DNA of 64,000 nt, from NCBI GenBank assembly GCA_023664775.1, contig JAMPEW010000002.1, positions 16,027-80,026 on the forward strand, written 5' to 3'. The notes under the pieces were generated by a model that did no database searches, was not told where the DNA came from, and saw only the letters and a program-made list of their open reading frames with translations. Of this stretch, positions 3,191 through 59,501 are shown piece by piece (the first letter of the stretch is position 1; each line of letters begins with the position of its first letter). The position numbers and the translations under genes were made by a program. The stretch comes from Clostridium sp. GTDB taxonomy: Bacteria > Bacillota > Clostridia > Lachnospirales > Lachnospiraceae.

Positions 3191-3268
3191 TAACCACACA
3201 CATTATTAAATTCTATTTATACTACAATCTGTTTCTTGTTTTTTATATTAAAATCCCTCAACATACAT

Positions 3269-3954: not shown

Positions 3955-3972
3955 GTCATTCCTCCTGCACCA

Positions 3973-14721: not shown

Positions 14722-14756
14722 ATCTTGTTCTCCTTTCATTTTTCTAAATTAGGACA

Positions 14757-23030: not shown

Positions 23031-23036
23031 TTCTAT

Positions 23037-25535: not shown

Positions 25536-26599
25536 ATACTTTCCTCCAATAATGGAATTTCATGTAACAAGCAATGGATGCCACCACCCCCTAACAAAGG
25601 TTCTCGACTATAAATTTGAATGATGTCTCTGTCCCTAAAAATACTTTCGAACAAGTGCTTAACAGTTTCATCCGTTTCGCAATTAAATGCTGGAATTAGT
25701 ACAGCACCATTAATCATATAAAAATTCAAATACGATGCTGGTAAAATATCTCCAGCATTTCTTGATAACGCATCTGGATTAAATATTAATCCTTTTACCT
25801 CTACTTCATCCATATATTGGGTGGGTGGTAATGGAATAAAGTGAATACTGTACTTTTCATTATTTAAATTAGTAATATTTGATATGACATTATATGCTTT
25901 CCTTACACGATAATAATTGGGGTTTGTTCTATCCTCAGTCCATGCCAAACAAATTTCTTTATGATTTGCAAAAGATAATATATTATCTATATGCCCATTT
26001 GTTTCATCAGAAAATAGTCCCTGTTCTATCCAAACCATTCTTTGATCATGAGTTGCATTTAAAATAGTTTCTTCAACATACTCTCTTTTTTTAAAAGGAT
26101 TACGATTTCTATTAAGTAAAACACTTTTTGTTGCAAAAATCGTTCCCAATCCATCAGAAATGATTCCACCACCCTCAAGAACAAGATTTACTCTATTACA
26201 TGGTATATGAAAATAATCTGAAACTATAGATGCAAAGCCATCATCTGCATTCCAAGGATAATATGCCCCTTCTTTCCTTCCACCCCACGCATTAAATTTC
26301 CAATCTATAGTTTCTATATTACCGTCACAACGTATGAATGAAGGTCCAATATCCCTTGCCCAAATATCATCATATTCTGAAAAAACAACATTAACACCAT
26401 TAGGAAAAATCCCTGTTTGACTTGCAAAATTCTTAGGGCAAAACAGAAATACTGGTTCATATCTTGATATTATTGAAACCAAATCAAGAATATAACGTTG
26501 CATATGAACAGCATTATCTCTCCATATATCACTTCTAAAGGGAAACATTGCTATTGTACCATAATGCTTTTCAAATTCTCCAATTAATCCATTACTCAT
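25532..26599 (-). CDS. Agmatine deiminase / PAD_porph-family guanidino-group modifying enzyme
   Basis: FPFRSDIWRDN, DIWARDIGP, and a C-terminal GGGGIHCLLHEIP (catalytic Cys motif). 4-nt overlap with the SET gene. Confidence 0.75.
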   Translation of the reverse strand: MSNGLIGEFEKHYGTIAMFPFRSDIWRDNAVHMQRYILDLVSIISRYEPVFLFCPKNFASQTGIFPNGVNVVFSEYDDIWARDIGPSFIRCDGNIETIDWKFNAWGGRKEGAYYPWNADDGFASIVSDYFHIPCNRVNLVLEGGGIISDGLGTIFATKSVLLNRNRNPFKKREYVEETILNATHDQRMVWIEQGLFSDETNGHIDNILSFANHKEICLAWTEDRTNPNYYRVRKAYNVISNITNLNNEKYSIHFIPLPPTQYMDEVEVKGLIFNPDALSRNAGDILPASYLNFYMINGAVLIPAFNCETDETVKHLFESIFRDRDIIQIYSREPLLGGGGIHCLLHEIPLLEESI

Positions 26600-26619
26600 T
26601 TTGATTTTTCAATAACCTT

Positions 26620-27462
26620 TCATCTATTTAATTTCTTCATTTGAAGTTCGATTGCCTCTTCTGGATGATACCCTTCAAATACTCTTCCAGATTCAACATA
26701 CATATCAAAAGCAACTCCATTATACCCCCCATGAACCGGTACTATGCCGCCAGATATAAAACTTGCCTTATCAGAGATCAAAAAACTTACAACATTTGCA
26801 ATTTCAAATGTTTCAGCAAATCTTCCAAGCGGACACAACTGAGAGCCTGTACTCCTAGAGATAAATGGAACCATTTCTGATGAAATTGAATCAGTTTCAT
26901 CATAAGATTTAACCCAGCCTGGACATACTGCCGTTACACGTATCTTTTTATCATCATACCCCAAATTAATCGCCAAGCTATCAGTTAGATTTATAAGTGC
27001 CGCCTTGCTTGCAGCATACGCCATACTTGAAAACGAACCTTTCAAACCATCTGTGCTAACGATATTGATAATAACTGCTTTTGTATTCATCTGAGATTTT
27101 AATCCAGTACTAAGCATTAGTGGTGCTGTAACATTTACAGCAAAAACACGATCCCATGTTTCGAAATCATAATTATCAATATCTTCATCCCCACTAAACG
27201 CACCAGCATTATTAACTAAAGCATCTAACCTTATTTCTGAATCTTTAAAAAAACTGATTAGGGATTTTAGTGAACTACGATTCGAAATATCACATTGGAT
27301 AAACGAAATATTATTAGGATGTTTTTCATAATATTCTTTTGCCGTTGAATCTTTGCTATGATATAAAGCATAAACATAGAATCCGTCAGTAATCAACTGT
27401 CTCGCAATGGCAAAACCAATCCCTGTAGTCCATGAAACACCAGTAACTAATGCCTTTTTCAT
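26620..27462 (-). CDS. Short-chain dehydrogenase/reductase (SDR)
   Basis: KKALVTGVSWTTGIGFAIA (Rossmann motif), NNAG, YAASKAAL (YxxxK). Confidence 0.8.
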   Translation of the reverse strand: MKKALVTGVSWTTGIGFAIARQLITDGFYVYALYHSKDSTAKEYYEKHPNNISFIQCDISNRSSLKSLISFFKDSEIRLDALVNNAGAFSGDEDIDNYDFETWDRVFAVNVTAPLMLSTGLKSQMNTKAVIINIVSTDGLKGSFSSMAYAASKAALINLTDSLAINLGYDDKKIRVTAVCPGWVKSYDETDSISSEMVPFISRSTGSQLCPLGRFAETFEIANVVSFLISDKASFISGGIVPVHGGYNGVAFDMYVESGRVFEGYHPEEAIELQMKKLNR

Positions 27463-27480
27463 TTTTTACCTCCTAATTAT

Positions 27481-27873
27481 TTAATTAATTATATAATTTA
27501 ATACCAACAAAATTATTCCAAAAATAAACACCACTATCTGTACTATATAAATTAAAGTCCATTTAACATACGCATTTTTCGTTGCCTCTAAAACAATTTC
27601 TCTTTTTTTACCATAGTCAATTACATGTTTTTCAATAATATAATTTTGAAACTTGCTCAACTTTGCTGCAAAATACATACATAAAGCACCTGTCAACAAA
27701 AATATTAATGTTGAGAGATATAAATGCCAATGAGCATATATATCAGCCTTTTCAAAGCATAGACTTGTAAAAATATTCACTGATAATGCAACAAAAATAC
27801 CACTTATAAATGTATACACATTATTATTAACTAGCATTAATGGTACACATACTTTTAAATACAAAATTTTCAT
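27481..27873 (-). CDS. Small integral membrane protein (3-4 TM helices), unknown function
   Basis: Hydrophobic helices throughout. 4-nt overlap with the upstream PAS gene. Confidence 0.55.
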   Translation of the reverse strand: MKILYLKVCVPLMLVNNNVYTFISGIFVALSVNIFTSLCFEKADIYAHWHLYLSTLIFLLTGALCMYFAAKLSKFQNYIIEKHVIDYGKKREIVLEATKNAYVKWTLIYIVQIVVFIFGIILLVLNYIIN

Positions 27874-29069
27874 AATTCTCCACTAAGTTGATGCTGAATC
27901 TCCAAAAATTGTTGTTCCAGAGTTTTAAATTTTTCCTCCATCTGTATTCTAATAAACTGTAACTCTGTTTCACTATTTAAAACTGAAGCATCTGATAATG
28001 TCTTATCCGTATATATATCAGCATCTTTTTTATATTCCAATATACGTTGCTTCATGTCAACAAATGATTTATACATACTAGATTCAGAATTAGGCATTGG
28101 ATTAACTTGATCTCTATAATCAGAAATTTCTTTCTCAATTTTTAACATAATGCTGTGTGCTAACTCTGACAGAGAACGACTACGTGATGCAATATCGCGA
28201 AGTATTGCGTCTCTCTCTGAAATAAAAGTATCATCCATATCATATTCATGTGATACCTCTTCAACATCTAATACGATATCTTCAAACGAATCCAAAATCT
28301 CATTATATTGCTTAAAAAAAGACTGCCTAGTTTCTTCACATTTATCATACGATGCACATGTTTGAATTTTAGAATAATATTCATCAACAGTCGAGTTCAA
28401 CTTATCTGTAATATCAGACAATGCAGTTTTTATTACTGAAATATTTCTTTTAAATTCAGTCCTCCGTCTAAGTGTAATAGCTTTTTTTTCACAGTTACGT
28501 ATTGCGGTATTAAGCGACATTTTTCTATCTAAAAAATGCTCTTTTAATTGGGAAGCATTATCTATAAATTGTTTTACACAAGAACTAATACGCTGACTTT
28601 CTGTTACAATAAGTTTTAACCTTTCTTTTTCCTGCTCTAGATAATCAATAATTAGACCCATTTCTGCATTCCAATATTCCCCAGTGACAGGATCCTTAAT
28701 TCTTCTACAGTTCGTTACCAACTGCAACGTATTACCATTTTTACCTTTGTCATTAGCAATATTATGAAAAAGAGCTGCATTATCAATTATATCAATCTGA
28801 TCACGTCGAGCGGCTACTTTTTCATCAGGAGCTACAAATAAATCAACAAAATCTTTACCTAATACCTCTTCACTACTAAAACCATATAAAGATTCGCATT
28901 GACCAGACCAAAATTTAATAATACAATTTCTATCACTTGCCCATACTGTAAACGGAGAAGCATCAAGGATAATAAGTTTCATCTGATCTTCGTATGTAAA
29001 TGCTCTCTTGATTTTCATTTCTTCAATATACGCTATCAATTCTTCTTTTGTCATATCTTTATAATTCAC
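27870..29069 (-). CDS. PAS-domain protein with a long helical/coiled-coil C-terminal region, no recognisable output domain
   Basis: ILDASPFTVWASDRNCIIKFWSGQCESLYGFSSEEVLGKDFVDLF is PAS-like. The rest is heptad-rich helical sequence. Confidence 0.6.
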   Translation of the reverse strand: MNYKDMTKEELIAYIEEMKIKRAFTYEDQMKLIILDASPFTVWASDRNCIIKFWSGQCESLYGFSSEEVLGKDFVDLFVAPDEKVAARRDQIDIIDNAALFHNIANDKGKNGNTLQLVTNCRRIKDPVTGEYWNAEMGLIIDYLEQEKERLKLIVTESQRISSCVKQFIDNASQLKEHFLDRKMSLNTAIRNCEKKAITLRRRTEFKRNISVIKTALSDITDKLNSTVDEYYSKIQTCASYDKCEETRQSFFKQYNEILDSFEDIVLDVEEVSHEYDMDDTFISERDAILRDIASRSRSLSELAHSIMLKIEKEISDYRDQVNPMPNSESSMYKSFVDMKQRILEYKKDADIYTDKTLSDASVLNSETELQFIRIQMEEKFKTLEQQFLEIQHQLSGEL

Positions 29070-29117
29070 ACCATTTCCTCCCTCCTACTTAATTGTAAAA
29101 CTCTTATAGAATATTCA

Positions 29118-30269
29118 TTAAGGATGCAAATATGGATATGTTTTACACTCACCAAGTTCCCTATAAAGTCGACGAACCGCCCTACATTTTACTAAATTCT
29201 GACCACTAAGTTTTCCTGTTTCGTTTACTGTTTCACCCAAACAATAACCACCACAATGGAGTTTCGCTGGGCATGACTTACAATGATTCATTTCTGTCGA
29301 ACGACGCTTATTTAACGCCTTAATCCTTTCGCTATATAATTCAAACGATTTCGTATTAGCATTCCACTTTCCTACAATAAATGGCTTCATATGATATGGA
29401 TCTGCTCCTGACACAACCATATCACATGCAGATATGTAGCCATCTGGTGTTAAGTGAGGTGCATTTTGCGGAGTGCAACAACGACAATGATATGAAGATT
29501 CACCATCAAAATTAATAGTGAGAAAGCTTCCCCAAAATACTCCTTTACTTTGAGCATAATAATAAGCTTTAAGATAATTATCAACATATAAATCCATATC
29601 AAAATGATATGCATCTTTTTTTTCCTTATCCTCACATATAGGAATTTTCCCCACTGCATAAAACAAGGGATTAGTCCAAACATAACATATTCCAAGACTA
29701 TAAAAATAATCTACCATATCAATTTGCTTATCAATGTTTTTATCTGTTATAGTTACTCTTGCACCAACCATTAATTTACGGTTTTGCTTATTTTCATTTA
29801 GCCAACGGACATTATCTTCCAATATTTCTGCAGATGTTTTGCCGTTAAAATCTTGATTAAAAAAAGGATTAAGAGGGCGATTATATTCCTGAATTTCTTT
29901 CATTCCATCAAAGGACAGCCAAATAATATTAAAATTGTCTAATGCCCAATTACGTACATCTTCTGTAAATACACCATTTGTCTGAATTTCTACAGTAACT
30001 CTATCTCCTCCATTTGGATGTAATTTAGCATAAGAAGTAATTTGCTTAAGAATTTCAAATTCTTGAGTTGGCTCGCCCGGTCCATAAAATCTAATATGGC
30101 GACTATCATTATTAGAAAAATACCAGTCTATTCCAGCTTTTGCAATTTCCAAAGAAAGTGTTTTTTCTTCCATTGCATTACGTTCTTTCGCATTATAACA
30201 ATAACGACAACATAAATTGCAACGTGTTGTCAAAAAAAATGATATCATTCTTTTATTACAATGTGGCAT
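29118..30269 (-). CDS. Radical SAM enzyme with a SPASM-type C-terminal Cys cluster
   Basis: TTRCNLCCRYCYN (Cx3Cx2C), GPGEPT, and a C-terminal CKSCPAKLHCGGYCLGE. Confidence 0.8.
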   Translation of the reverse strand: MPHCNKRMISFFLTTRCNLCCRYCYNAKERNAMEEKTLSLEIAKAGIDWYFSNNDSRHIRFYGPGEPTQEFEILKQITSYAKLHPNGGDRVTVEIQTNGVFTEDVRNWALDNFNIIWLSFDGMKEIQEYNRPLNPFFNQDFNGKTSAEILEDNVRWLNENKQNRKLMVGARVTITDKNIDKQIDMVDYFYSLGICYVWTNPLFYAVGKIPICEDKEKKDAYHFDMDLYVDNYLKAYYYAQSKGVFWGSFLTINFDGESSYHCRCCTPQNAPHLTPDGYISACDMVVSGADPYHMKPFIVGKWNANTKSFELYSERIKALNKRRSTEMNHCKSCPAKLHCGGYCLGETVNETGKLSGQNLVKCRAVRRLYRELGECKTYPYLHP

Positions 30270-38529: not shown

Positions 38530-40779
38530 TTATCCCTGTTTTAATCCATGTGCCTGTTTCTTCGCTTCTATTTTCCGTCTTAACTTGCGATCCACCCGAA
38601 TCCTGTTTCCGCCGTTTTCCCCCTCTTCCATACGGTTTTGCAGGATTCTTCCCGTATGATGCAGGAGGCGGAGCACACCGAGTCCTGTATACAGATTTCG
38701 ATTGTGCCGAAGGTCAGACAGAAGCTGTTTGGCATACGGATTTCCATGCTCCACCGCTGCATTTAAATATGCAATTGCCTGCTCGTAATCCCGCTCTGCC
38801 TCCCCTCCATACAGATAAATCTTTCCAAGCTGATATTCTGCATAGCTGTTGTTCTGCTTTGCTGCTCCAGTCAAATAGCGGATGGCACGCTCTATATCCC
38901 TGTCTGTTCCCTCTCCCCGATACAACAGTTTCCCCATGACATACTGTGCGACAGGAAATCCCCGGTCTGCCGACATGGTAAGAAGACGGATTGCCTGTTC
39001 TGTATTCTGCGGCAGAATTTTTCCGTCCAGATATGCCTTCCCCAGCGTATAAGCGGCATACCTGTTCTGCTGATTGGCGGATGCCTGAAGCAATTTTACC
39101 GCCCTTCCCACATCCTGTTCCATATCCGTACCACGAAGCAGTTGTCTGCCCAGCAGATATTCCGCATAACTGTTGTTTTGCCCGATTGCCTTTTCCAGCC
39201 ATCGGACTGCATTTTTCACATCCTTTTGTACATGCTCCCCTGTTAAAAACAGCTTTCCCAGCATATATTGTGCAACGGTATATCCCTGCTCCGCCGAAGC
39301 TGTCAGCCATCGAACTGCCTCCTGCGGGTCATACAGGGGAGATTCTTTGTCAAGAAACATTTTTGCAAATCCATACTGTGACCACTTGTTTCCCATTTTC
39401 GCCTCTGCCCGTATTGTCTCGTATACGGATGTCAGCTTGGGGCTATTCCCTGCCGCCTTTTTCTCTAACGGTTCTACACATTTTTCTTTCCCTACACTTC
39501 TTACAACCTCCATGTTATCCATGGTTCCCGCATCTTCCATGTCTTCCATGATTTCCATGTTCTCTATAGCTTCCATTTCCTTCATGGCTTCCTTGTTCTC
39601 CGCAATTTCCATGGTTTCCATATCCTTTATTTCCTCCGGCTCATCCATCCGCACAACAGTTTTTAATTGCATTGACTCCCGTATTATCATGTTTTTGATT
39701 GACTTGAATTCGTTGTTCTCTGCTAATGGAATTCGTTTCGGCAATTCCTGCGTATAGGTCTGTATCACTGCCTCCCGTTTCTCATACCACAGGTCATACA
39801 GGGTTTTTATCCGCCCATCCTTCTCCAGTTCCCCCACAATGGCGTCAACGATATCCTTTACATCTGCTTTCAGATAACCATAGATTTTTTTGCCGGATGT
39901 GTTGCTCAGTCTCTCATTTAACGTAAGAAGAAGTTTCTCCAACTGTGCATTGTCTCCGTTGCTCTGTTTCAGGGCTTCCAGTGTTTCCTCCATGATTTTC
40001 CGGCTGTTTTCTTTTACTTCGTTCCTATGCATGGTCTGTTTTTCGTAAATACTCAGCAAATCCTGTGCAAATATGTCTCTTGCAAAGGCAGAACGCAGGT
40101 TACTGACACCCTTGGGCGTCAGATAGCCCTCATTTTCTATTACCGAATATGCTAGCAGATGGACATGTGGATGATGGGATTCATTGTGAAAAGCGGCAAA
40201 CCATCTGAGATTTTCCATTGAAACCTTTAAGTTGACGGCAAGTGCCTCCGTCTGTGTCCGAAGCATATCCCGCCATCTGCTTCCGTTATTATATCCAAGC
40301 CGTTCCGCATCTTCTCTCCGCAGGGATATGATAACCGTCCACACATTTCCGCCATGTTTGTTCAAATCCTCCGATACCTTCGACAGATTTACTTCCACAC
40401 CCTCGTCTGTGAACAGACCATGTGTACCGAAGCGTTCTGCCCGCGGACGTGTGGCAATATAATCCGCATAGGTTTTCTGAACTATTATATCGCTGGCATT
40501 GTCCTCCAGTGCTCTTGTAATAAACTCGGATGCATTTCCAATTGTGGGCTGTTCCATATAGTCCTCATATTCAAGCATCTGTCTGCTGTCAGGAAAATCC
40601 CGCAATATCTTTTCTATCAGTTTTTTCTGGGACAGGGTTGCCGCAGCATGTTTTTTGGAGTCATCGATTTTTTCCACACCTTCACGGGTTGCAATATATT
40701 TTGCATAACCGCCCCGATTTCTTTTGCCTCCCCTATCACAAGGTTTCAGATACTTAAACTTGGTAACCAGCTTCGCCAT
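38530..40779 (-). CDS. MOBP-type relaxase fused to C-terminal Sel1/TPR repeats
   Basis: Relaxase His cluster FHNESHHPHVHLLAY. Met/Glu-rich linker. At least 6 Sel1-like repeats (AQYMLGKLFLTGEHVQKDVKNAVRWLEKA and others). Confidence 0.8.
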   Translation of the reverse strand: MAKLVTKFKYLKPCDRGGKRNRGGYAKYIATREGVEKIDDSKKHAAATLSQKKLIEKILRDFPDSRQMLEYEDYMEQPTIGNASEFITRALEDNASDIIVQKTYADYIATRPRAERFGTHGLFTDEGVEVNLSKVSEDLNKHGGNVWTVIISLRREDAERLGYNNGSRWRDMLRTQTEALAVNLKVSMENLRWFAAFHNESHHPHVHLLAYSVIENEGYLTPKGVSNLRSAFARDIFAQDLLSIYEKQTMHRNEVKENSRKIMEETLEALKQSNGDNAQLEKLLLTLNERLSNTSGKKIYGYLKADVKDIVDAIVGELEKDGRIKTLYDLWYEKREAVIQTYTQELPKRIPLAENNEFKSIKNMIIRESMQLKTVVRMDEPEEIKDMETMEIAENKEAMKEMEAIENMEIMEDMEDAGTMDNMEVVRSVGKEKCVEPLEKKAAGNSPKLTSVYETIRAEAKMGNKWSQYGFAKMFLDKESPLYDPQEAVRWLTASAEQGYTVAQYMLGKLFLTGEHVQKDVKNAVRWLEKAIGQNNSYAEYLLGRQLLRGTDMEQDVGRAVKLLQASANQQNRYAAYTLGKAYLDGKILPQNTEQAIRLLTMSADRGFPVAQYVMGKLLYRGEGTDRDIERAIRYLTGAAKQNNSYAEYQLGKIYLYGGEAERDYEQAIAYLNAAVEHGNPYAKQLLSDLRHNRNLYTGLGVLRLLHHTGRILQNRMEEGENGGNRIRVDRKLRRKIEAKKQAHGLKQG

Positions 40780-41414: not shown

Positions 41415-41454
41415 AAAAGCAAAAAGCCCTCACTTTTAGCATGAAAAGCGAGGG
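41415..41454 (-). terminator. Rho-independent terminator after the four-gene cargo operon
   Basis: Stem ccctcactttt (41427-41437) / aaaagcgaggg (41444-41454). T-rich tail on the minus strand. The stem sequence is the same as in the terminator at 332-363. Confidence 0.65.
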
Positions 41455-41584: not shown

Positions 41585-42163
41585 TTAATATTTTTCCGAT
41601 ATCTTTCCCCATACCACTTCGTTAAGATATATTTTTTCTTCCTTAATAGTGATAACATTCCATTTCAGCAAATCAGAAATATTTCTATCTAACATTTTCA
41701 TATCAAAATCTTTTATTTGATAATCATTCAACATTTCTAATATTTTATCTTTTAACTGTTTTACCGTAATTCCAATCTCATATGCATCCAATAAATGAAG
41801 GGCATATATGATAACTGCACTATTATCATCTAACTCTCTTTTAGTAATTGTTCCTATGCATAAAATAGAAATAACAGCTAATTGAAGGTATTCAAATATT
41901 GTTTCTGGACTGTTAAAGGATGCAACAAATTCGATTATTGCAATAAGCACACTTTTTAAGTCCAATCTTATATTTCCTAATTTGTAAGAAGTAGCCTCCT
42001 TCCCAAGAACAATCATGGTCCGCTTAGGGTCTTCTGGAATTATTTCTAAATATTGTTCCATTATCATGTTTCCAATAGATAAGTCTAAATCTTTTCTTTT
42101 AGAATATTTTTCTAATATTTTCTGAATTTGACTATCTAATTGTTTAGCTTCATCTCTATTCAT
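41585..42163 (-). CDS. Small helical protein, unknown function (fourth gene of the operon)
   Basis: Intact ORF overlapping the upstream gene by 8 nt. No motif recognised. Confidence 0.5.
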   Translation of the reverse strand: MNRDEAKQLDSQIQKILEKYSKRKDLDLSIGNMIMEQYLEIIPEDPKRTMIVLGKEATSYKLGNIRLDLKSVLIAIIEFVASFNSPETIFEYLQLAVISILCIGTITKRELDDNSAVIIYALHLLDAYEIGITVKQLKDKILEMLNDYQIKDFDMKMLDRNISDLLKWNVITIKEEKIYLNEVVWGKISEKY

Positions 42164-43196
42164 TACTCTTCTTTCTCCGTTCTCTTTGCTCTGTCCGAAT
42201 AATTTTATCTAATTTACCATGCTCTTTCTTTAATAGCAATTGAGTCCGATATTCATCATATACATCTAAAAAACCTCCATATAGATGATTTCCATCAATC
42301 GTATCAAATACATATTTATTATCATTTGCAATAGCAAATAAATGACTAATTCGATCTTTAGGAAGCGGATGCGTATTACTATTAATCTTTTTATTATAAA
42401 GAACTCTGTCAGTATAATAAAACAAATCAAAAAACTGCATATACATTATGGGTACAAGATATGTATATTCATCTAAAATCTTATCCTGCATCTCTGCCCT
42501 GCTTTGTTCAATAATAATTTTCAAAACAATATCATATGCTACTGCATCTGCTGCAAATTCTTCTTTTTTTTCAGTTGAAAACACTTTTCCAATACTTGAA
42601 AAGTATGAATGTGCAACCTCATGTGCCAAATTAAATACTACAACCGTCCAATAACAAGTTGAGGCCAAATTCATAATCTGAACATCCTCTCCCACAATTT
42701 TCAACAATGCTTCATTGGATGCAGAATCAGGGATATCTCCTAATATGCAGATATCATTCATAATAAACAATAAATAACGAAAACAATTTCCATATACTTC
42801 TAGATCTTTAAACTCTTTCGACCATTTAAACATGATTAGAAAAAAAGACATTACTGATGATTCAAATAACTCATCTATATGAACAAACTCATCTCTTACT
42901 CCATCCATAAAAATGTAGCTATTAACAGAATGTTGGTAACTATTACATAATTCGATTTTATCTCCATAATAATTATACTCTTTCGAAAAATAGTCCTTAA
43001 CCAATTGAAACATACTATCAAGACTGTACCTTTTTGAATTTTCTTTAAGTTGCTCTTCTGTCAGCCCAGATTTATGAAAATATTTCAGCATAGTTTCTAT
43101 TCCTCTTTTTTCGTCTTTAATTGACTCTCCACCAAATCGTAAAATCTCATAATCATCTGGTGGCAAAAAGAAACTTGCATTTTCCTCATCAAACAT
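42156..43196 (-). CDS. HExxH metallopeptidase-like protein (ImmA/IrrE-like core)
   Basis: NLAHEVAHSYF...EKKEEFAADAVAYDIVL resembles the HExxH...E..A..FA signature of ImmA/IrrE. Start moved to 43196 after GGGAGGGGG. Confidence 0.5.
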   Translation of the reverse strand: MFDEENASFFLPPDDYEILRFGGESIKDEKRGIETMLKYFHKSGLTEEQLKENSKRYSLDSMFQLVKDYFSKEYNYYGDKIELCNSYQHSVNSYIFMDGVRDEFVHIDELFESSVMSFFLIMFKWSKEFKDLEVYGNCFRYLLFIMNDICILGDIPDSASNEALLKIVGEDVQIMNLASTCYWTVVVFNLAHEVAHSYFSSIGKVFSTEKKEEFAADAVAYDIVLKIIIEQSRAEMQDKILDEYTYLVPIMYMQFFDLFYYTDRVLYNKKINSNTHPLPKDRISHLFAIANDNKYVFDTIDGNHLYGGFLDVYDEYRTQLLLKKEHGKLDKIIRTEQRERRKKSNE

Positions 43197-43240
43197 ATAT
43201 ACCCCCTCCCAAAACATTCCAGCATTATTCGCTGTTATTT

Positions 43241-44464
43241 TTAAATTATTTCTGAATTCACATTATTGCAAAGAATATTTCTACCCATTTCAAAATCCAA
43301 TGTTCTATTACACTGGTAACATGAATAAAAAAATGTTTTTTGTTTGCTATTTATTAGCAGATGCATTTTTTTCCCACAATTTGAACAGGTTACTTGAGCT
43401 ACATCTGATGACCAATAATTACCCTGCAACTGATTTATTCCTAATACCACAACAAACACTTGATTGACACCGACATATTTTAATGTTCTTATACACTCTC
43501 TTATTGTTGCTCCCGTCGTAATAATATCATCAATAATTATAATATTTTTTCCTCTTAAGTAATTTTCACCTTTAAAAGCGTCAGCTATATTATCCTGTCT
43601 TTCTAATGATGATAATACTTTTTGTGTCGGATAATCCTTTACACATTTTAAATAATCCTCTAAATTCTCAATATTACATTTCTTCGCTATAATTTCAAGT
43701 ATTTTTTCAAAACGATTATCCCTTCCGACATGTACTGGAACCGCTAATACACCATCAATTTCGTTCGTTTTTTGTATTCTTTCTACTGCACAAATAAAAA
43801 GACTCGCAAATATATCGTCAAATTTTCTATAATATGATTTCCCTTCTTTTTTATTAAGAAAAATCGCAGTTGAATATGGATGCAACTGGCTCATATAATG
43901 ATAATAACCAAAGTATCTTCCAAGCATATACATAGGTATCTCTTCATCATCTACTTTAAATAGTAGTGGTATAATCATTCCTGTCATTTCTTCATTCGGA
44001 AAAATGACAACTTCTCCCAAAAATCCCTTCACACCCTTTAATACCAACTTCTTAAAGGAATTAAATTCTCGACATATTAAATCTGGTGATTTACTAGCTG
44101 ACTCATATGAGACTTTATCAGTTACCCATATAGTCCCACCCATAAATCCCATTGCATTTTCTAAAAACATACTGTTTTGAGAAACATATGCTATTTCTGT
44201 GGGTTTCAAATTCATAATTTCCAGTACGGTTTTATGTGTCATTGGACTAGGAGCAAACAATTTGATAAATGGTTCAATTTGATAAACATATTTTTTCCCA
44301 TAGGCAATAGCTATTTTTTTAGAATTTTCCTCATTAGAGGTCAAAAATAGACAGTGATATCTATCAAATAATTCTCTCCAATCTTCTATTGAGATATTTC
44401 CAAAACTATCAATATCTATTACCAATCCCCTTAAATCAGTTATGCACCTAAACATACCAGTCAC
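43241..44464 (-). CDS. ComF-like phosphoribosyltransferase-domain protein with a C-terminal zinc ribbon (ShosT-like)
   Basis: PRPP loop KNIIIIDDIITTGATIRE. C-terminal CSNCGKK...CYQCNRT. Start overlaps the upstream stop (GTGA). Confidence 0.7.
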   Translation of the reverse strand: MTGMFRCITDLRGLVIDIDSFGNISIEDWRELFDRYHCLFLTSNEENSKKIAIAYGKKYVYQIEPFIKLFAPSPMTHKTVLEIMNLKPTEIAYVSQNSMFLENAMGFMGGTIWVTDKVSYESASKSPDLICREFNSFKKLVLKGVKGFLGEVVIFPNEEMTGMIIPLLFKVDDEEIPMYMLGRYFGYYHYMSQLHPYSTAIFLNKKEGKSYYRKFDDIFASLFICAVERIQKTNEIDGVLAVPVHVGRDNRFEKILEIIAKKCNIENLEDYLKCVKDYPTQKVLSSLERQDNIADAFKGENYLRGKNIIIIDDIITTGATIRECIRTLKYVGVNQVFVVVLGINQLQGNYWSSDVAQVTCSNCGKKMHLLINSKQKTFFYSCYQCNRTLDFEMGRNILCNNVNSEII

Positions 44465-45705
44465 CCCTTAATTATCGCTGGTTCAAACCATTCTAACATA
44501 TTTTCTTTCTCTGGACTTTTATTTAATTCAGATATATATGCTTCCAATGTTTGCTGCTTGTTTTCCAAATGTCTATCAGGTCTAAATATGTTATTCTCAG
44601 CAAGAATCTTAAGAACCTCTGTAGGATTCTTTACCACTATAGCACCTCTTTTTTCGTATTTAGCTGGCCATGTAATTTTTTCTATTTTTAAGGCACTCTC
44701 AGGAATCAATATCTGCCTTCCCTGTTTTAGTGCAAAATCTGCCTGTTTTAAAGCCCCTGAAGTCTCTCCCGCCTCCATAATAACAGTGGCCAATGAAAGC
44801 CCACTCATTACTCCGTTTCTCATAGGAAAAAACCATCTTTGAGTTTTACTGGCTGGCGAAAACTGTGAAACTATAAGTCCTTTGTTCTCAATCTCAAGCT
44901 GAATTTCTTTATTTTCTGCGGGATAGTATTGATTTAAATTAGTTCCGATTACAGCAATTGTATTATATCCATTTTTTAATGCTGTTTCATGTGCAGTCAC
45001 ATCAATACCTTTTGCCAATCCAGATATAACTGTTATCCCATTTTTTCCTAATTTTTCTGCTAACCGTCTAGTATTATCTTTGGCATTTTCTGAAGCCTGT
45101 CGTGAACCTACAAGTGCTACAGTTCTCCTTTCATATAATAAGGACTTTTTCCCTCTTATATATAAAAATCTAGGAGCTTGCTCTGTCTCCGCTAAAAGTG
45201 GTGGATAATCACTACTTCCTCGCTTTATAATTTCATCATTTTCTCTAAGGCTAGAAAATGCCTTATATGCCTTACTATATTCTTTCAACAGAGTATCTTT
45301 ATCTACCTTAAAATACTCTACATATTTTTCACATATTTCAGTATTGTTCATAGGCCTATCAATATTTACATTTTCACTAAATGTAATAAATTCTGGTTCA
45401 AGTCGAGATTCTGTAATGTTTAGCACATTCATTAAAGTAGCATAATTCAATGCTTCTTGTTTTGCCTTTGTATCAATAACAAACATTCCTTTCGCACCTC
45501 CACTCTCAATTTTAGTAAAAATAGCAAGTTCTTCTTTTCTTCGATTAAGTTCATCAATATGAAAAATAGTTCCAGATGCATTTTTCTTTAATGGCTTTAT
45601 TTTTTCTTCTTGGACCAATTTGTTCAATCTTTGAACAGTAATGCCTAAAAATTCTGCCGCCTCTTTTGCAAAAAACAATTGATTTGCAAGCAAATTATCC
45701 TCCAT
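44461..45705 (-). CDS. HTH-fused DprA/Smf (SLOG) domain protein (ShosA-like)
   Basis: N-terminal excisionase/MerR-like HTH AKEAAEFLGITVQRLNKLV. DprA core VALVGSRQAS, ISGLAKGIDVTAHETAL, VIGTNLNQYYPAENKEI, FPMRNGVMSGLSLATVIMEAGETSGAL. Confidence 0.8.
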   Translation of the reverse strand: MEDNLLANQLFFAKEAAEFLGITVQRLNKLVQEEKIKPLKKNASGTIFHIDELNRRKEELAIFTKIESGGAKGMFVIDTKAKQEALNYATLMNVLNITESRLEPEFITFSENVNIDRPMNNTEICEKYVEYFKVDKDTLLKEYSKAYKAFSSLRENDEIIKRGSSDYPPLLAETEQAPRFLYIRGKKSLLYERRTVALVGSRQASENAKDNTRRLAEKLGKNGITVISGLAKGIDVTAHETALKNGYNTIAVIGTNLNQYYPAENKEIQLEIENKGLIVSQFSPASKTQRWFFPMRNGVMSGLSLATVIMEAGETSGALKQADFALKQGRQILIPESALKIEKITWPAKYEKRGAIVVKNPTEVLKILAENNIFRPDRHLENKQQTLEAYISELNKSPEKENMLEWFEPAIIKG

Positions 45706-46033
45706 AACAATACCCTCCTGTTATAATGGTATCTTATGGGTTTCAAGTTGTCAACCCTTATATTTTTCAATATTTGTTTCTTATTTCTAACCCACATATT
45801 TACTCACAAACACTGCCCTTTTATCAGATTCTCAACCCACAAGATGCCCTATCCGAAATAATACTGACCCCCTAAAGATATTCCAGCTAAATTTCCTACA
45901 GCTCCCCAAACGGTCGGCGTTGCCGTCCGAAGTAAAGCGAGTCGGGGGTGTATCTGTAACCCCGACTCTTTCTCCTGCTTGATTTTCGACCCTATATTTT
46001 TACTTCGTCTATTAAGCAACCTTATACATGAAA

Positions 46034-46759
46034 TTACTGTTTTTCCTCAAATACAAAAAATCTGTTACCGCAAAACTCATCAAAATTCTCAAACATTATC
46101 TCCACCCTATTAATCTTCTTCTCCGTATGATAATGCCCGCAATACCACTTCTCGTATTCCAGCCTGTCTTCAATTCTGTCCAGCCACTGCTCGGTAGTTT
46201 TATCCACCCGACCCTGAGCCACGCCTGTCATAAACACCTCTACCGGCTCATACTTCAGCGGTATGGTATGGCTCAGCACTACATCTACCTTCCACTTCAA
46301 TTTATCCAACTGACTTTCCACATACTGTTTTATCTCCTCAGAGGGCTGTTCATCCGACCACCAGCCATATCCATACATGAGCCGTACATCCTTATCAATG
46401 CTATATGCTCCACCCATAACAATAGTTTGTTTCCCGTCCAGATCAAATATTTCCCCATCCTTTGCAAACAACAGACTCGGATATTCTTCTTCACAATATA
46501 CTATGCCACCATGCCACGCCTTCTCCTTATAGCTATCAATGGTATATGGTCTCTGCTCGTGGTTTCCATGTATGCAAAACAGTGTAATTGGCAATGCCTC
46601 CAAAAACTCTTTTTTCTTTCTGTCGTAGATTTCTCCGCTGAAATTGACACCCACATCGCCAAGTATAATCAATATATCTTCCCGACTGGTTTCAAACCGT
46701 CTGCAAAAATTCTCTATACGTTCAAATTGTCCATGTGTATCTCCCGTTATATAAATCAT
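46034..46759 (-). CDS. Calcineurin-like metallophosphoesterase
   Basis: IYITGDTHG, ILGDVGVNF, IHGNHE, GHYH. Confidence 0.8.
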   Translation of the reverse strand: MIYITGDTHGQFERIENFCRRFETSREDILIILGDVGVNFSGEIYDRKKKEFLEALPITLFCIHGNHEQRPYTIDSYKEKAWHGGIVYCEEEYPSLLFAKDGEIFDLDGKQTIVMGGAYSIDKDVRLMYGYGWWSDEQPSEEIKQYVESQLDKLKWKVDVVLSHTIPLKYEPVEVFMTGVAQGRVDKTTEQWLDRIEDRLEYEKWYCGHYHTEKKINRVEIMFENFDEFCGNRFFVFEEKQ

Positions 46760-54653: not shown

Positions 54654-55634
54654 TTATCCTCTGCTTCTGCCTGTAATGATAATTTCTCTCAATCTTTCTT
54701 CCTCGTCCTGACAACACATCGCATCCAAATCAAGCAGTGTCAATTGTCTCGGCTGGTTCCGCTCTCTTTCGTACAGGTCATAATTACCTATGAGAAGCTC
54801 CGGAAATTCCTTTCCCGCCTCATATTTTTGCACCATAGAGTGAATGCGGTGAAAATCAAAAAACTGATATCCTGCATACAACTCCCTGATTTCCGGGCAG
54901 TCATTATAAGAGACCAGCCATTTTCCTTCTGTCTGTGCCAGCGTATCTCTCAGCCGGACATGGTCCTCCCATGAAAATCCGCATGCATACACATACTCGC
55001 TTGTAAAATATGGCGGATCACAGTAAAAAAAAGAATCAGGTCTGTCGTAATGCTTTATCAGCACCTCGAAATCCTGATTCTCTATCATGACATGATCCAG
55101 CCTCCTGCTTACCTCCCATATTAAAGAAAACAGACTGCATATGGAAAACGGCTGGCAGGCATAGCTCTTGCCTGCACTTGCATAGCTGTAACGCAGCAGT
55201 TTCAAAAACATAACCGCCCGTCTCAAATCATACTGCTCCGTGGATGCTTTATACAACTCACGAATTTCCTCCGTCTGAATCTCCGGCAGAAGAATGGTTG
55301 TCATTTCCATTTCCTGTTCCAAAAACCTGTCGTCAAATTCCTCCTTCTCAAAAAATTTCTTTATCACCCGAAAATCATCCCTTGCATTTAGATTCAGAAA
55401 CCCCAACGCACGGATAAATGCCAGCGGTCTGTCCCGCATACAGCAAAACAGATTTACAAGATTGTGGTTAAAATCATTGTATACTTCAAACTTGTCCGCA
55501 CTTTTCTTTCCAAGCAGCACGGCTCCCGAACCGCCGAAGGGTTCTATATATCTTCCGTAAGATGTCGGGAACAGGGCATATAAGATATGCAGGACGGAGG
55601 TTTTATTCCCCACCCAGCTTACAGGGGTTTTCAT
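54654..55634 (-). CDS. dam: Orphan N6-adenine DNA methyltransferase (Dam/D12 class)
   Basis: WVGNKTSVL, YIEPFGGSGAVLL, FYCDPPYF. No adjacent endonuclease gene. Confidence 0.85.
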   Translation of the reverse strand: MKTPVSWVGNKTSVLHILYALFPTSYGRYIEPFGGSGAVLLGKKSADKFEVYNDFNHNLVNLFCCMRDRPLAFIRALGFLNLNARDDFRVIKKFFEKEEFDDRFLEQEMEMTTILLPEIQTEEIRELYKASTEQYDLRRAVMFLKLLRYSYASAGKSYACQPFSICSLFSLIWEVSRRLDHVMIENQDFEVLIKHYDRPDSFFYCDPPYFTSEYVYACGFSWEDHVRLRDTLAQTEGKWLVSYNDCPEIRELYAGYQFFDFHRIHSMVQKYEAGKEFPELLIGNYDLYERERNQPRQLTLLDLDAMCCQDEEERLREIIITGRSRG

Positions 55635-55748
55635 AACCGCACCTCCTCAATCGTTTCCGGACCTTCCTCGGAATCTTCCGATGAAAGGCCTCATCCTTAT
55701 CCCTCAAGCAGCTGACACTGCTTCTTTGAACCGGTATTTGCCATACAC

Positions 55749-56315
55749 TTACAGATGCATCATTTCCTCTTCCTTCATATCTTCCCCGTCATCCGTGATG
55801 TTGACATACTCACCGATAATGTTCAGCGCCTCGGCATAACTTCCTGATGCAGTGATTCTGTCACACATTTCCTCCGCCTGTGTTCCCATTCCCTGCTCCT
55901 TTAATGTCCTTGATGCAATCCCCATCAGATTGAAGATGTTACCATCCTGTCCAATCAGCGGACAATTGGGTTTCACGGTATTCTCTTCATTTACAAAACC
56001 TCCAAGTCTGTTTGGCACATAATCGGAAAGCCATGTACCGCCAAAGGTGTCATATGTGTTTAACCGCCACACGGCCAGCTTTCCCACATTCAGCTTTACA
56101 TCCTCAAATGGGAACAGCAGACAGGTAACGCCTTCCTTCTCGAAATACATACAGGTCTGAAACTTACTTCTCTCCAATAAAATTTCCTCCTGTGTAAGAA
56201 GGTCGTTTATGCCGTCTACCCATTCCTCAAGGTTTCCCCCGCAGCCCTGAAGGATAAGCCCTTCACTGTCATGCATTCTGCGAAGCTCATCCGGCTCAAT
56301 TTTCCTGATATTCAT
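55749..56315 (-). CDS. Conserved ICE leading-region protein, unknown function
   Basis: Intact ORF with a strong AGGAGG RBS. Confidence 0.55.
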   Translation of the reverse strand: MNIRKIEPDELRRMHDSEGLILQGCGGNLEEWVDGINDLLTQEEILLERSKFQTCMYFEKEGVTCLLFPFEDVKLNVGKLAVWRLNTYDTFGGTWLSDYVPNRLGGFVNEENTVKPNCPLIGQDGNIFNLMGIASRTLKEQGMGTQAEEMCDRITASGSYAEALNIIGEYVNITDDGEDMKEEEMMHL

Positions 56316-56363
56316 AACCGTATACCTCCTGACCGATTTATATCTGCCTCCATCTCTTCATTT

Positions 56364-57689
56364 TCAAAAATCTCCCTGACATCCTCCGGTCCCATGTTTT
56401 TCCTCCTGTTCCGTAATGTCCCTTTGGTCATCCATTTCCTTTATTTTTCTTCCCAGTGCGGCAATGACGGGAACCGTTACCGCATTCCCCGCCATTTTGT
56501 AAAGTCTTCCGTCAGAGAGTCCTGTTGCCTGTGCCTTATAAAACTGCTCATCCGTAAATCCCTGTAAACGCCAGCATTCAAGCGGTGTCAGTCTGCGTAC
56601 CCTTCCGTTCCATACAACACCATGCCGGTCCTGTGCCGTAATGGTAAACATCGGCTCCCCCGCTTCCTTCATTCGTCTTCCCTGCTGTCTTACTTTTGTT
56701 CTATCCGGTGTCAATATGGCACTCGCATCTCCCATGAATACGCCTGAATGTTCTCCTTTTCTGTGACTGATGCCTGCATTCTGCCTTGACGTAATGCATC
56801 TTGCCGTGTCTGTCAGTGCAGGATTTTCATTCATGTCGATAAAAAATAACCCCTGTGTATTTGCAGGCGTTATCGTATGTGCCATTTTCTTTCCCACTCT
56901 GCCCCGACGTGAATTCAGATTTGGATACGCAAGATCGATGCTGTCACCAACATGTGCAGTCTGATACCCGGTCTTTGTATTGACCTTAATCGGTAATCCT
57001 ATATTATAAAGTCCCGATTTCCCACCAAAGCCCCCTGCTCCGCTTGTCAGCGTGCAGCTTAATCCTTTGTCTGAGTACACACGGTTTCCCTGGCTTCCGG
57101 GAATGCATTGTATAAGAGACGTTCCATTTGCTTCCGTGAAAGAAAGTATTTTTCCGGCACATCGTTCTCCAAGAAATCCGATAATGAACACTCTCTTTCG
57201 GGACTGGGCGACACCAAAATCCGCGCTGTTAAGCACCTGCCATGTGACATGATACCCCAGTTCAGAAAGTGCACCGAGGATGGTCGCAAATGTCCTGCCG
57301 CCGTCATGCGACAACAAGCCGGGAACATTCTCAAGGAGCAGATATGAAGGTCTTTTAACGGAAGCAATTCGGATAATTTCAAAGAAAAGCGTTCCTCTTG
57401 CATCGTCAAATCCGCCCCGCTTTCCAGCAATTGAAAAACTCTGACAAGGGAATCCTCCGCAAATAAGGTCGATATCCGGCAGTTCATTCGGTTCCATTGT
57501 TCTTGCATCATCAAAATACAGCTCTCCTTTCGTATCGTATATGGCTTCATAGGCTTTTCTTGCATACTTATCACTTTCACAATATCCCAGACATTCATAT
57601 CCGCCGACAGCCTCCAGCCCCGACCGAAAACCGCCTATGCCTGCAAACATATCAAAAAAACGGATTGCCATAAGCATCCGCACTCTCAT
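56364..57689 (-). CDS. dcm: Orphan DNA cytosine-5 methyltransferase
   Basis: FDMFAGIGGF (motif I), GGFPCQSFSIAGKRGG (motif IV), LLLENVPGL (motif VI), AGNAVTVPV (motif X). Confidence 0.9.
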   Translation of the reverse strand: MRVRMLMAIRFFDMFAGIGGFRSGLEAVGGYECLGYCESDKYARKAYEAIYDTKGELYFDDARTMEPNELPDIDLICGGFPCQSFSIAGKRGGFDDARGTLFFEIIRIASVKRPSYLLLENVPGLLSHDGGRTFATILGALSELGYHVTWQVLNSADFGVAQSRKRVFIIGFLGERCAGKILSFTEANGTSLIQCIPGSQGNRVYSDKGLSCTLTSGAGGFGGKSGLYNIGLPIKVNTKTGYQTAHVGDSIDLAYPNLNSRRGRVGKKMAHTITPANTQGLFFIDMNENPALTDTARCITSRQNAGISHRKGEHSGVFMGDASAILTPDRTKVRQQGRRMKEAGEPMFTITAQDRHGVVWNGRVRRLTPLECWRLQGFTDEQFYKAQATGLSDGRLYKMAGNAVTVPVIAALGRKIKEMDDQRDITEQEEKHGTGGCQGDF

Positions 57690-57713
57690 ACTATTTACTT
57701 TTTTCGCTTCACC

Positions 57714-58157
57714 TCACATTCCCATGGAAAATGCCATACCTTCCTCCTCCGAACAGCTTTCTTCCTCTTCTCTCATGTCATATGACTGTTCTTCATCGGA
57801 TTCCTCTTCCGGATTCTGATTTTGGTCTGTCTCTTCACGCTCGGTCAAATCCCGCTCCAGTTCGTCTTCAATCAGCCCGATTATAAATTCCTTCTGTGTC
57901 ATGTTGTTGCGCAGCAGATAATCCTTAATTCGTTGAAACAAATCCTCCGATACCTGAAACGCTATGGTTCTCATATTTCCCATACCCTTTTCCTCTTTCA
58001 TTCTGAATTTTGGATGGAGCTCATCCTCCAGTGCAAGTGCGACAAACTCCGCCATCGTTATGCCATGACGCACCAAATACTGCCGAACTTCTGCATGAAG
58101 TGCTGCGTCAACCTTGACTGTGATACCTTTCTTTTCATTAACAGACAATGCTATCAC
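57714..58157 (-). CDS. Tandem ribbon-helix-helix (CopG-like) protein with an acidic tail
   Basis: Two similar RHH units (ITVKVDAALHAEVRQYLVRHGITMAEFVALALEDEL and RTIAFQVSEDLFQRIKDYLLRNNMTQKEFIIGLIEDEL). Confidence 0.6.
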   Translation of the reverse strand: MIALSVNEKKGITVKVDAALHAEVRQYLVRHGITMAEFVALALEDELHPKFRMKEEKGMGNMRTIAFQVSEDLFQRIKDYLLRNNMTQKEFIIGLIEDELERDLTEREETDQNQNPEEESDEEQSYDMREEEESCSEEEGMAFSMGM

Positions 58158-58307
58158 CCTCCCTCATACTATAAAGTAGTTTTGTCTATGGTCCCTCTCC
58201 AGAGACTATCTGCTATACGCATGAAAATACCGTGGATTGGTTCTCACTCCCTCATAATTTGGAATTTTCCCCGTTCGTTCTGTGTTTTTCCCTTCCACAG
58301 GCATATT

Positions 58308-59501
58308 TTACATTCCTCCCATCATCATATGCTTCTCTTCTTTTTCCTGACTTTCTTCTATTTTTTCGCCTATGATTTCATCAAGACTCTGCCCATTGTC
58401 TATATATACAAAACCACCTGATGCTAAAAACTTACCTCCTGTATGAATTTCTATATATTCACCAAACTGTTCATATAGAAAGAAATCCTCCAGTTCGGGA
58501 CTTAATTCATATTCCTCCCTGTGTGCAATCCAGTACCTTGCCAATTCTTCCTGATTATTTATATCCGGAAGAAACATAAAACAATCCATTTTCGCCGCAA
58601 TCTGTGTCAGTGATTTACTGTCCCGCACATTGGCATATTCTGTGACTGCAGTAAGTTTCTTCCAGTCCTCCTGCTCCACAAATCCACGGACGACATTTGC
58701 AAATTGATTTACCGCATACAATCCTTCCGACTTCAGGATATCCCTCAAGTGCATTAGCCACTCCTTATCATCAAGGGTGTAAGCAAACAGATTCACGCTA
58801 CACTCCTGAAGATTTCCGGCATTCAATCTGTGTAATGCTTTGCTGATGGAAATCCCCTCACACGGAAGATAAGCATATTCCGTTTTCCCATGGAAGCTGA
58901 GTTCCGCAATAACAAGGCATTCCTCATAGATATATTGGGGGAATACCTGTCCGTCATACACCTCATCAAACGGAATTTCCTCATTAACAAACAAAATGCC
59001 ATATTTTGTTATTCTACCTCTTCCGCATTCCAACAATTTCCTGCCCATATCTTCAAAAGCAGCGGCTTCCATTTCCTCTTCGCTAAGCCCTCCTGATAAG
59101 GTAAGTTGATGCAGACGACCAACAGCTTCCATACTGCTTACATCCTGTATCAGTGTAAATCGGGACAGATTAAATGTCAGATTAATGCAGTCCTTTAATT
59201 TGGTAAATCCACAATGATGTACAGCGGCGAAAAACTGTTTTTCTTCCCTTTGATCAAGGCTTTCCAGCCGCTTGGCAAGATAGTTTAATTCATCTAAATC
59301 AACAAAACAGCCCCGTAGCATGGATAAATCTTTGGGGTCATGCACCTCTGCAATAAACAAGTTAAAATCTGATTTATCCCTCCCCTGAAACTGAATCAGC
59401 CACTGTTCCATGTCACTGTCGGCACACGGAAACGAGAGCGAAATATAATCCTGGTTATATTGTGCGGTTACTATAATCACAAACCATTCCTCCTTCTGCA
59501 A
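58308..59501 (-). CDS. Conserved ICE leading-region protein, unknown function
   Basis: Intact 397-aa ORF. The true start may be the in-frame GTG at 59480, 8 nt after AAGGAGG. Confidence 0.55.
   Translation of the reverse strand: MQKEEWFVIIVTAQYNQDYISLSFPCADSDMEQWLIQFQGRDKSDFNLFIAEVHDPKDLSMLRGCFVDLDELNYLAKRLESLDQREEKQFFAAVHHCGFTKLKDCINLTFNLSRFTLIQDVSSMEAVGRLHQLTLSGGLSEEEMEAAAFEDMGRKLLECGRGRITKYGILFVNEEIPFDEVYDGQVFPQYIYEECLVIAELSFHGKTEYAYLPCEGISISKALHRLNAGNLQECSVNLFAYTLDDKEWLMHLRDILKSEGLYAVNQFANVVRGFVEQEDWKKLTAVTEYANVRDSKSLTQIAAKMDCFMFLPDINNQEELARYWIAHREEYELSPELEDFFLYEQFGEYIEIHTGGKFLASGGFVYIDNGQSLDEIIGEKIEESQEKEEKHMMMGGM

Follow-up and report, generated by a model that had tools for sequence, protein, structure and literature searches.

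Two adjacent two-gene modules, a divergent ShosTA-type pair and a Lit-like peptidase pair, as probable defence cargo of a clostridial integrative and conjugative element

The toxin ShosT is composed of a HAD-like pyrophosphatase domain (residues 1–164) and a non-canonical, monomeric phosphoribosyltransferase (PRTase) domain (165–424) (PMC11961720, PMC12961424), and its toxicity requires D331/D332, mutation of which abolishes it (PMC11961720). ShosA, its antitoxin, is a DprA-like dimer which attaches to single-stranded DNA (ssDNA) as well as to RecA and neutralises ShosT without binding to it (PMC11961720, PMC12961424). We took as our ShosTA reference the system of E. coli APEC O1 / KTE181, with PDB entries 8zva–8zvd and 9vzo. 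Here we examine an AT-rich block of four genes at 41585–45705 of a 64,000-nucleotide (nt) stretch of Clostridium sp. DNA (contig JAMPEW010000002.1; this whole stretch is hereafter called the window), carried by an integrative and conjugative element (ICE) of Lachnospiraceae type. An earlier note, made from the sequence alone, had read the block as a ShosTA-like pair extended by a metallopeptidase and a small protein into one four-component system. In our judgement the block is probably accessory defence cargo of the ICE that consists of two independent two-gene modules, recently joined and probably co-transcribed: a divergent ShosTA-type pair and a Lit-like abortive-infection pair. Two further systems serve as points of comparison: Lit reportedly cleaves EF-Tu in the presence of the T4 Gol peptide, and DprA and ComFC are said, from work on H. 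pylori ComFC, to be functional partners on ssDNA.

The four genes, g1 to g4 from upstream to downstream, are co-oriented on the minus strand. g1 (44461–45705; 414 amino acids, aa) encodes a helix-turn-helix (HTH) domain joined to DprA and is the putative ShosA-like antitoxin gene. g2, the putative ShosT-like toxin gene, spans 43241–44464 (407 aa) if started from a GTG and 43241–44455 (404 aa) from a likelier ATG. g3 (42156–43196; 346 aa, in an open reading frame that extends to 43217) encodes a zincin metallopeptidase, and g4 (41585–42163; 192 aa) its orphan partner. The GC content is 0.28–0.35 across the block (about 0.30) and 0.45–0.49 in the flanks on both sides. The spacing between g2 and g3 is 44 nt, and g3 and g4 overlap by 8 nt (ATGAATAG); g2 contains IIIDDIITTGAT and the four cysteines of a zinc ribbon, and g3 contains HEVAH and EEFAAD. 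The coordinates, the AT-rich composition, the spacing, the overlap and these motifs are as the earlier note had described them. The 346-aa start of g3 is the second ATG of its frame, at 43196, preceded by the ribosome-binding site GGGAGGGGG. The likelier ATG of g2 at 44455 has an AAGGGG site 8 nt upstream, and the window's own g2 protein in a public protein collection (P0121) has 404 aa. The reported overlap of the g2 start with the g1 stop therefore holds for the GTG at 44464 and disappears with the ATG at 44455.

Whether the four genes travel together was addressed by comparing g1–g4 by tblastn with 94 loci and by scanning one genome per species for relatives of g3. The latter scan gave 52 loci with a g3 relative, almost all from Lachnospiraceae or other Clostridia. 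A g4 homologue lay directly downstream of the g3 relative in 46 of the 52, the exceptions being truncated matches or contig ends, and neither g1 nor g2 was present within 7 kb of it in any of them. Five metagenomic g3 lineages (58–76% identity) each have the peptidase gene followed by an overlapping gene of about 189 aa, which is a g4 homologue (33–58% identity), and no DprA or PRTase gene was found near g3 in any of the five. On the side of the toxin, a scan of viral contigs yielded 16 confirmed g2 relatives, each with an adjacent g1 homologue and none with g3 or g4, and g1 was always adjacent to the g2 relative in the loci compared. The g2 relatives with 62% and 50% identity are preceded by an HTH-DprA gene (411–413 aa) and lack g3–g4, the first pair standing alone in an ICE-like region with ArdA, D12 methylase and YodL genes (L017), the second at a prophage end, after tail-fibre and CHAP endolysin genes (L020). 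The g3–g4 cassette has 35 different upstream contexts in 46 loci and 26 different downstream contexts in 41. The four-gene order recurs only in two loci (L022 and L023), with g3 about 90% identical; the closest four-gene relative is 90% identical in g3, 95% in g1 and 88% in g2. The earlier note had itself regarded genes 3 and 4 occurring independently of DprA-PRTase pairs as the finding that would speak against a four-component system, and independent pairs are what we found: the combination is absent from the genome loci (0/52), the viral loci (0/16) and the metagenomic lineages (0/5). The attractive 'four-component ShosTA' reading is thus corrected; two adjacent defence cassettes in an ICE cargo hotspot are easily taken for one. 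The block itself seems to have arisen recently, when two cassettes became physically joined in such a hotspot.

When the full library was searched with a g4 profile, nearly all the proteins retrieved were about 189 aa long, and a small number were fusions. In the fusion protein P0459 (508 aa), residues 101–320 match the g3 profile with 99.3% probability and residues 360–506 the g4 profile with 97.5% probability; fusions of g3 with g4 occur in some lineages, never with g1 or g2. Because of the separate distributions and this fusion protein, we consider that g3 and g4 belong together and not with g1–g2. Immediately downstream of the P0459 gene (L176, 658–2184) come hsdR, a TIR_2 gene, hsdS and hsdM. 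Its placement by type I restriction–modification (R–M) genes recalls that of PrrC inside a type I R–M locus.

We then characterized the two modules by domain content, conservation and predicted fold. The g1 protein is made up of HTH_17 (residues 5–60), a SAM-like linker, a DprA/SLOG core (158–358) and a 55-aa tail, with Pfam matches to DNA_processg_A (2.4e-63) and HTH_17 (4.4e-6). It matches the broad PADLOC ShosA model PDLC03961 at 3e-73, the E. coli ShosA scoring 2e-85 on the same model, and its core is 34% identical to E. coli ShosA. The g2 protein has a HAD-like N-terminal domain (about 1–150), a PRTase domain (about 200–345; Pfam Pribosyltran 1.9e-8) and a C-terminal Cys4 zinc ribbon (357–382). 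No variation was seen in 50 of 50 g2 homologues at D309, D310, T314, G315 and T317 or at the four cysteines of the ribbon, and the HAD motif I aspartates D14 and D16 are conserved. An AlphaFold (AF2) model built on the 50 homologues (predicted local distance difference test score, pLDDT, 92) had three ShosT structures as its top PDB fold matches (8zvd, 8zvb and 8zvc; E 4e-10 to 4.5e-9), aligned end to end over both domains. The fourth match was H. pylori ComF (7p0h, 1.5e-6), and ordinary PRTases also ranked behind ShosT. The TM-scores of g2 with ShosT are low (about 0.32), since the relative orientation of the two domains differs. When the g2 family profile was aligned with E. coli ShosT by hhalign, the probability was 87% (E 3.6e-6, 226 columns, g2 77–338), and the N-terminal part of the profile matched the HAD dehalogenase 3um9 at 3.7e-4. 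Matches were also seen to the PADLOC models of PsyrTA, g2 to the C-terminal PRTase region of PsyrT (6.8e-13) and g1 to PsyrA (1.2e-33).

The PADLOC score of g1, the ShosT fold matches and the hhalign result bear out the earlier proposal that g1–g2 are a ShosTA-like pair, and the HTH on the DprA protein is, as had been suggested, a true difference from E. coli ShosTA. The DprA-first gene order, which had been taken for another difference, is not one. At the E. coli locus found via the PDB ShosA sequence (L177), ShosA (3216–4199; 327 aa) is directly upstream of ShosT (4201–5475; 424 aa); this ShosT has N53, K54 and R56 as published, and the locus lies in a P2-like prophage hotspot. Among the relatives of the pair, g1 is much better conserved than g2, the respective identities to the window being 85 versus 62% (L017), 66 versus 50% (L020) and 65 versus 29% (L079–L083). 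This could reflect fast evolution of the toxins or else an exchange of partners; the difference fits an antitoxin that acts without binding its toxin (PMC11961720, PMC12961424).

Some relatives of g1–g2 have features of their own. Those in viral contigs L086–L091 have the toxin first, PRTase gene then DprA-like gene. One of these contigs (L087, 1–2429) encodes a 481-aa PRTase protein whose HAD motif I is canonical (FDLDNT) and which bears two zinc ribbons. The gene next to the lone g1–g2 pair of L017 (8465–10357) encodes a 630-aa PNP_UDP_1 + HAD protein with weak PADLOC matches to PDC-M60C and to a PN-superfamily effector, and may be another nucleotide-targeting defence gene.

As for the second module, g3 carries HEVAH at 192–196, EEFAAD at 212–217 and THP..R at 275–282, and H192, E193, H196, E212, E213, A216, D217, H276 and R282 are invariant in 50 g3 homologues. 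These motifs can be matched one by one with those of E. coli Lit (HEVAH with HEISH, EEFAAD with EEREAD, NTHPLPKDRI with NTHPAAYERI); the THP....R element is also typical of M48 peptidases. g3 had no PF10463 match in the Pfam copy used; its homologues have a precomputed assignment to PF10463.16 (Peptidase_U49) from a newer Pfam at E<=1e-5. Nor did g3 itself match PF06114 (M78) at E<=0.01; weak M78 matches were found in 29 of 50 g3 relatives (best 1.6e-5) and M48 matches in 3 of 50. The AF2 model of g3 is mostly helical (pLDDT 85). Its fold search of the PDB gave nothing below E 0.6, and the best match in BFVD was a phage M48 peptidase, weak at E 0.6; the fold is therefore assignable only as 'zincin-like'. 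Sequence and profile searches of PDB sequences with g3 and g4 found nothing. Since the statistical links are weak in every direction, we refer to g3 as a Lit/M78/M48-like zincin and refrain from classing it as Lit. The earlier label 'ImmA/IrrE-like' is fair as far as the motif goes, but Lit (U49) and M48 are just as remote from the family.

The g4 protein has no Pfam, PADLOC or PDB match and no detectable HTH, and its family is of near-constant length, about 189 aa; through the 8-nt overlap its gene is translationally coupled to g3. The g3–g4 cassette is found in accessory contexts, its neighbours including an nSTAND NTPase, a PDC-M62A candidate, IS66 and a prophage. Three groups account for the most frequent families among the 149 nearest neighbours of the cassette: integrases and transposases, with integrases the commonest of all (6 of 149); ICE genes, namely DUF6674, LPD16/18, YodL, DUF4316 and SpoVG; and conflict genes, namely TIR_2, DUF4062, type I R–M, Tpt1, AEP-TOTE and MADS.

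As to toxicity, trigger, protease target and the role of g4, we infer the following from these features. g1–g2 would form a divergent ShosTA-family type IV toxin–antitoxin or abortive-infection pair. In it, g2 would be the toxin, a monomer-type PRTase that binds or consumes phosphoribosyl pyrophosphate (PRPP) via its invariant DD loop, aided by the HAD-like N-terminal domain, and its zinc ribbon may tether it to nucleic acid. g1 would be a DprA-like antitoxin that counters the damage by an indirect route, by way of ssDNA and RecA, and its additional HTH would probably autoregulate the operon. The toxin would then be released by an infection in which host synthesis is shut off or the cell is flooded with ssDNA. 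g3–g4 would be a Lit-like zinc metallopeptidase and a 190-aa partner that restrains or directs it, most likely a second abortive-infection system in which a phage cue leads to cleavage of an essential host protein.

Several results weigh against this explanation. The g1 core is nearer to competence DprA than to E. coli ShosA in searches of the PDB (S. pneumoniae DprA 1e-31, ShosA 9vzo 3e-20), and g1 just clears the TIGR00732 dprA equivalog cutoff (192.7 versus 191.15). g2 has no match to the specific ShosT model PDLC03012, on which E. coli ShosT scores 2.6e-294, and its match to the broad model PDLC03962 (7.7e-8) covers only the PRPP loop (model positions 161–212 of 237), E. coli ShosT matching full-length at 3.1e-53. 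The comparison of g3 with E. coli Lit by hhalign gave E 0.003 and a probability of 10% over about 53 aligned columns across the active-site helices, and its scores on the Lit models of PADLOC (0.0016) and NCBIfam (PRK09672, 0.013; 14.7 bits versus 274) are far below the cutoffs. The census of g3–g4 neighbours is a descriptive tally and not a statistical test of enrichment. Finally, as the four genes are probably transcribed together, the two modules could interact functionally in this element.

The alternative that survives best concerns g3–g4, which could be a regulatory protease together with its substrate, as in ImmA-ImmR or IrrE-DdrO, or a RosmerTA-like toxin–antitoxin with g4 as the toxin and the peptidase as its antitoxin, and not a Lit-like suicide protease. 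We consider this somewhat unlikely. The HExxH...EExxAD arrangement is of the ImmA/IrrE type, and the weak Peptidase_M78 matches of the family, the frequency of integrases beside the cassette and the faster evolution of g4 than of g3 are all in keeping with such a pair. However, neither an HTH nor a match to any other family is detectable in g4, the HTH that RmrA has is absent from g3, which also has no PADLOC Rosmer match, and the cassette is also found away from integrases, outside mobile elements (L001) and by R–M and TIR genes. Moreover, a single-polypeptide fusion suits a sensor and effector better than a repressor and its protease. Literature searches on U49/Lit-like two-gene systems returned nothing relevant. 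We prefer to read g3–g4 as an abortive-infection protease plus a subunit that regulates or senses and, in a more specific form that we put forward only tentatively, suggest that they could be an undescribed two-component system in which a Lit-like zincin is controlled by a dedicated sensor or inhibitor of about 190 aa, fused to it in some lineages, a system widespread in gut Lachnospiraceae and absent from PADLOC v2, and here transcriptionally hitched to a divergent ShosTA with HTH and zinc ribbon, so that a layered defence travels with the element.

A second alternative, that g1–g2 are DNA-handling factors of the DprA and ComFC-like kind that protect or process incoming ssDNA in ICE transfer or transformation, appears unlikely. 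The two g1 results given above, clearance of the dprA cutoff and S. pneumoniae DprA as the closest PDB sequence, speak for it, as do the weak ComF and GntX matches of g2, the rank of ComF 7p0h among the fold matches and the zinc ribbon beside the PRTase, which recalls ComFC; ICE DNA, moreover, reaches the recipient as ssDNA. However, g2 is far below the cutoffs on both models (TIGR00201, 53.2 bits versus 233.55; GntX, 50.9 versus 304), and its HAD-like + PRTase architecture and best folds are those of ShosT and not of ComFC. The pair also resides at the ends of prophages and on viral contigs, settings in which uptake of ssDNA plays no part, and here in AT-rich cargo outside the conserved backbone. 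No comFA-type helicase gene was found among the annotated loci, the neighbours in L017 and L020 being ICE or prophage genes and the remaining g2 relatives being on viral contigs. A bona fide ComFC identity for g2 with comFA context, which the earlier note had named as the other outcome that would overturn its reading, is rejected in view of the score and the context.

The sequence signals around the block bear on the link between the two modules. Upstream of g1 there is a promoter-like site, TTGACA-17-TACCAT (45726–45754, minus strand), a consensus match only, with 10 of 12 matches and the top score of the minus-strand sites in the region; downstream of it the g1 ATG is preceded by a GGAGGG ribosome-binding site. 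When an operator was sought around the promoter-like site, weak direct repeats only and no inverted repeat were found. The g2–g3 junction between the modules (43197–43240, minus strand) contains a weak hairpin at 43220–43234, and an intrinsic terminator 3′ of g4 (41427–41454, minus strand) has an 11-bp stem with 5 GC pairs, followed by CTTTTTGCTT. Where g3–g4 cassettes stand alone, a promoter-like TTGGCn-17-TAnnAT region of their own precedes them. That region is missing from the window and from L022, its place being taken by g2's 3′ end together with a short spacer that is AT-rich, so that g3–g4 are probably read through from the g1 promoter here. The single strong promoter-like site and single strong terminator for all four genes, the short g2–g3 gap without a clear promoter and the arrangement kept in L022 and L023 would suit a four-component system with g3–g4 as a dedicated regulator or extra effector of the ShosTA-like pair, but this is very improbable given that each pair occurs alone in many contexts and the combination in none of the genome and viral loci scanned, that the recurrences, with g3 about 90% identical, fit recent common descent, and that the fusions involve only g3 and g4.

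The two modules sit within a recognizable ICE. On one side of the block are an RHH-like gene, a MobL relaxase with Sel1 repeats, a DUF3991-Toprim gene and a type IV coupling protein gene; on the other side are genes for a metallophosphatase, NlpC/P60, a VirB4-like ATPase, TrbL, two DNA methylases and ArdA. Because of these flanking gene families, the ICE setting and the position between the relaxosome and type IV secretion system genes, both claimed earlier, are confirmed. We sought an 'empty site' version of the ICE via the flanking metallophosphatase. Its 80 metagenomic relatives (75–83% identical) are on other backbones, none with g1–g4; the insertion boundaries therefore rest on GC content alone. 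The metallophosphatase gene itself (46034–46759, minus strand), calcineurin-like and just upstream of g1, has these relatives in 80 mostly human-gut metagenome contigs (L096–L175); it may be cargo too, since nearly all of them lack the relaxase and NlpC/P60 genes of this ICE. Metallophos genes are also among the nearest neighbours of g3–g4 in three other loci.

Other genes of the element and its surroundings, all on the minus strand, were noted in passing. The MobL-family relaxase (38530–40779) has a C-terminal Sel1/TPR repeat array, an unusual fusion. A second, larger AT-rich cargo block of the same ICE, at about 16–35 kb, carries a complete Gabija pair (21243–24734; GajA 23037–24734, PADLOC 5e-181; GajB 21243–23030, 5.3e-209) and a 1248-aa YobI-like P-loop NTPase (16928–20674; PADLOC Tmn 1.8e-74), together with genes at 25044–30269 for a PAD_porph (agmatine/peptidyl-arginine deiminase-like) protein, a PAS-domain protein and a radical SAM protein. 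A 2121-aa surface protein (8374–14739) with eight T-Q ester-bond domains, a SpaA-type domain and a thioester domain is probably an ICE adhesin for mating-pair formation. In the ICE backbone at 54654–59501 are genes for a D12 adenine methylase, a C5 cytosine methylase and an ArdA-domain protein, an anti-restriction set beside the defence cargo. In AT-rich DNA beyond the ArdA end of the backbone there is a gene for a 571-aa AAA_15/AAA_21 ATPase (61093–62808), whose best PADLOC matches are AriA/AriAB (PARIS), NsnB and OLD/GajA. Counting Gabija, Tmn, the ShosTA-like pair and the Lit-like pair, this single ICE carries at least four defence units, plus anti-restriction and orphan methylase genes.

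The comparison with ShosTA suggests that this family extends to a clostridial branch missed on the toxin side by current models. As in E. coli, a DprA-like gene lies directly upstream, at near-zero spacing, of a gene of about 400 aa with a HAD/pyrophosphatase-fold domain and a PRTase domain; the acidic DD PRPP loop is shared, the invariant DD of g2 corresponding to the D331/D332 pair of ShosT, and both are carried by mobile elements, a P2-like prophage hotspot in E. coli and here an ICE, with relatives at prophage ends. The clostridial pair differs in the excisionase-type HTH at the N-terminus of g1 and in the C-terminal Cys4 zinc ribbon of g2, which E. coli ShosT lacks; g2 keeps the HAD motif I aspartates D14 and D16, whereas the E. 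coli N-terminal domain uses N53, K54 and R56 (PMC11961720). The hosts are Clostridia/Lachnospiraceae, and the g2 sequence is very distant from ShosT. The HTH of its putative antitoxin and the zinc ribbon of its putative toxin bear on how ShosT senses or acts near DNA. PsyrTA / RqlHI likewise combine a DprA-like antitoxin with a PRTase-containing toxin, but PsyrT has a large RecQ-like helicase N-terminal region (g2 covers only 547–683 of the 689 positions of its model) where g2 is HAD-like. The DprA-ComFC pair of natural transformation shares the DprA core and a ComF-type PRTase with a zinc-binding element; there, however, the ribbon is N-terminal and the HAD-like domain of g2 is missing, whereas g1–g2 have no comFA gene, are mobile-element cargo and score far below the ComF cutoff.

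Like g3, Lit (Peptidase U49, from the E. coli e14 prophage) is mobile-element cargo and has an HExxH motif, an EExxAD about 15 residues later and a downstream (N)THP....R; unlike g3, which is paired with g4 or fused to a g4-like domain, it is a single gene. ImmA/IrrE (M78) and RosmerTA resemble g3–g4 in the type of active-site motif and as two genes, for a zinc peptidase and a small protein, on a mobile element; they differ in that g3 and g4 have no HTH, no XRE-type repressor partner and no PADLOC Rosmer match. The conserved Lit-like peptidase/partner pair is thus a testable new candidate defence system of human-gut Firmicutes, backed by the fusion protein and the defence-island neighbours. 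What is new here is a divergent ShosTA branch and an uncharacterised Lit-like peptidase/partner pair.

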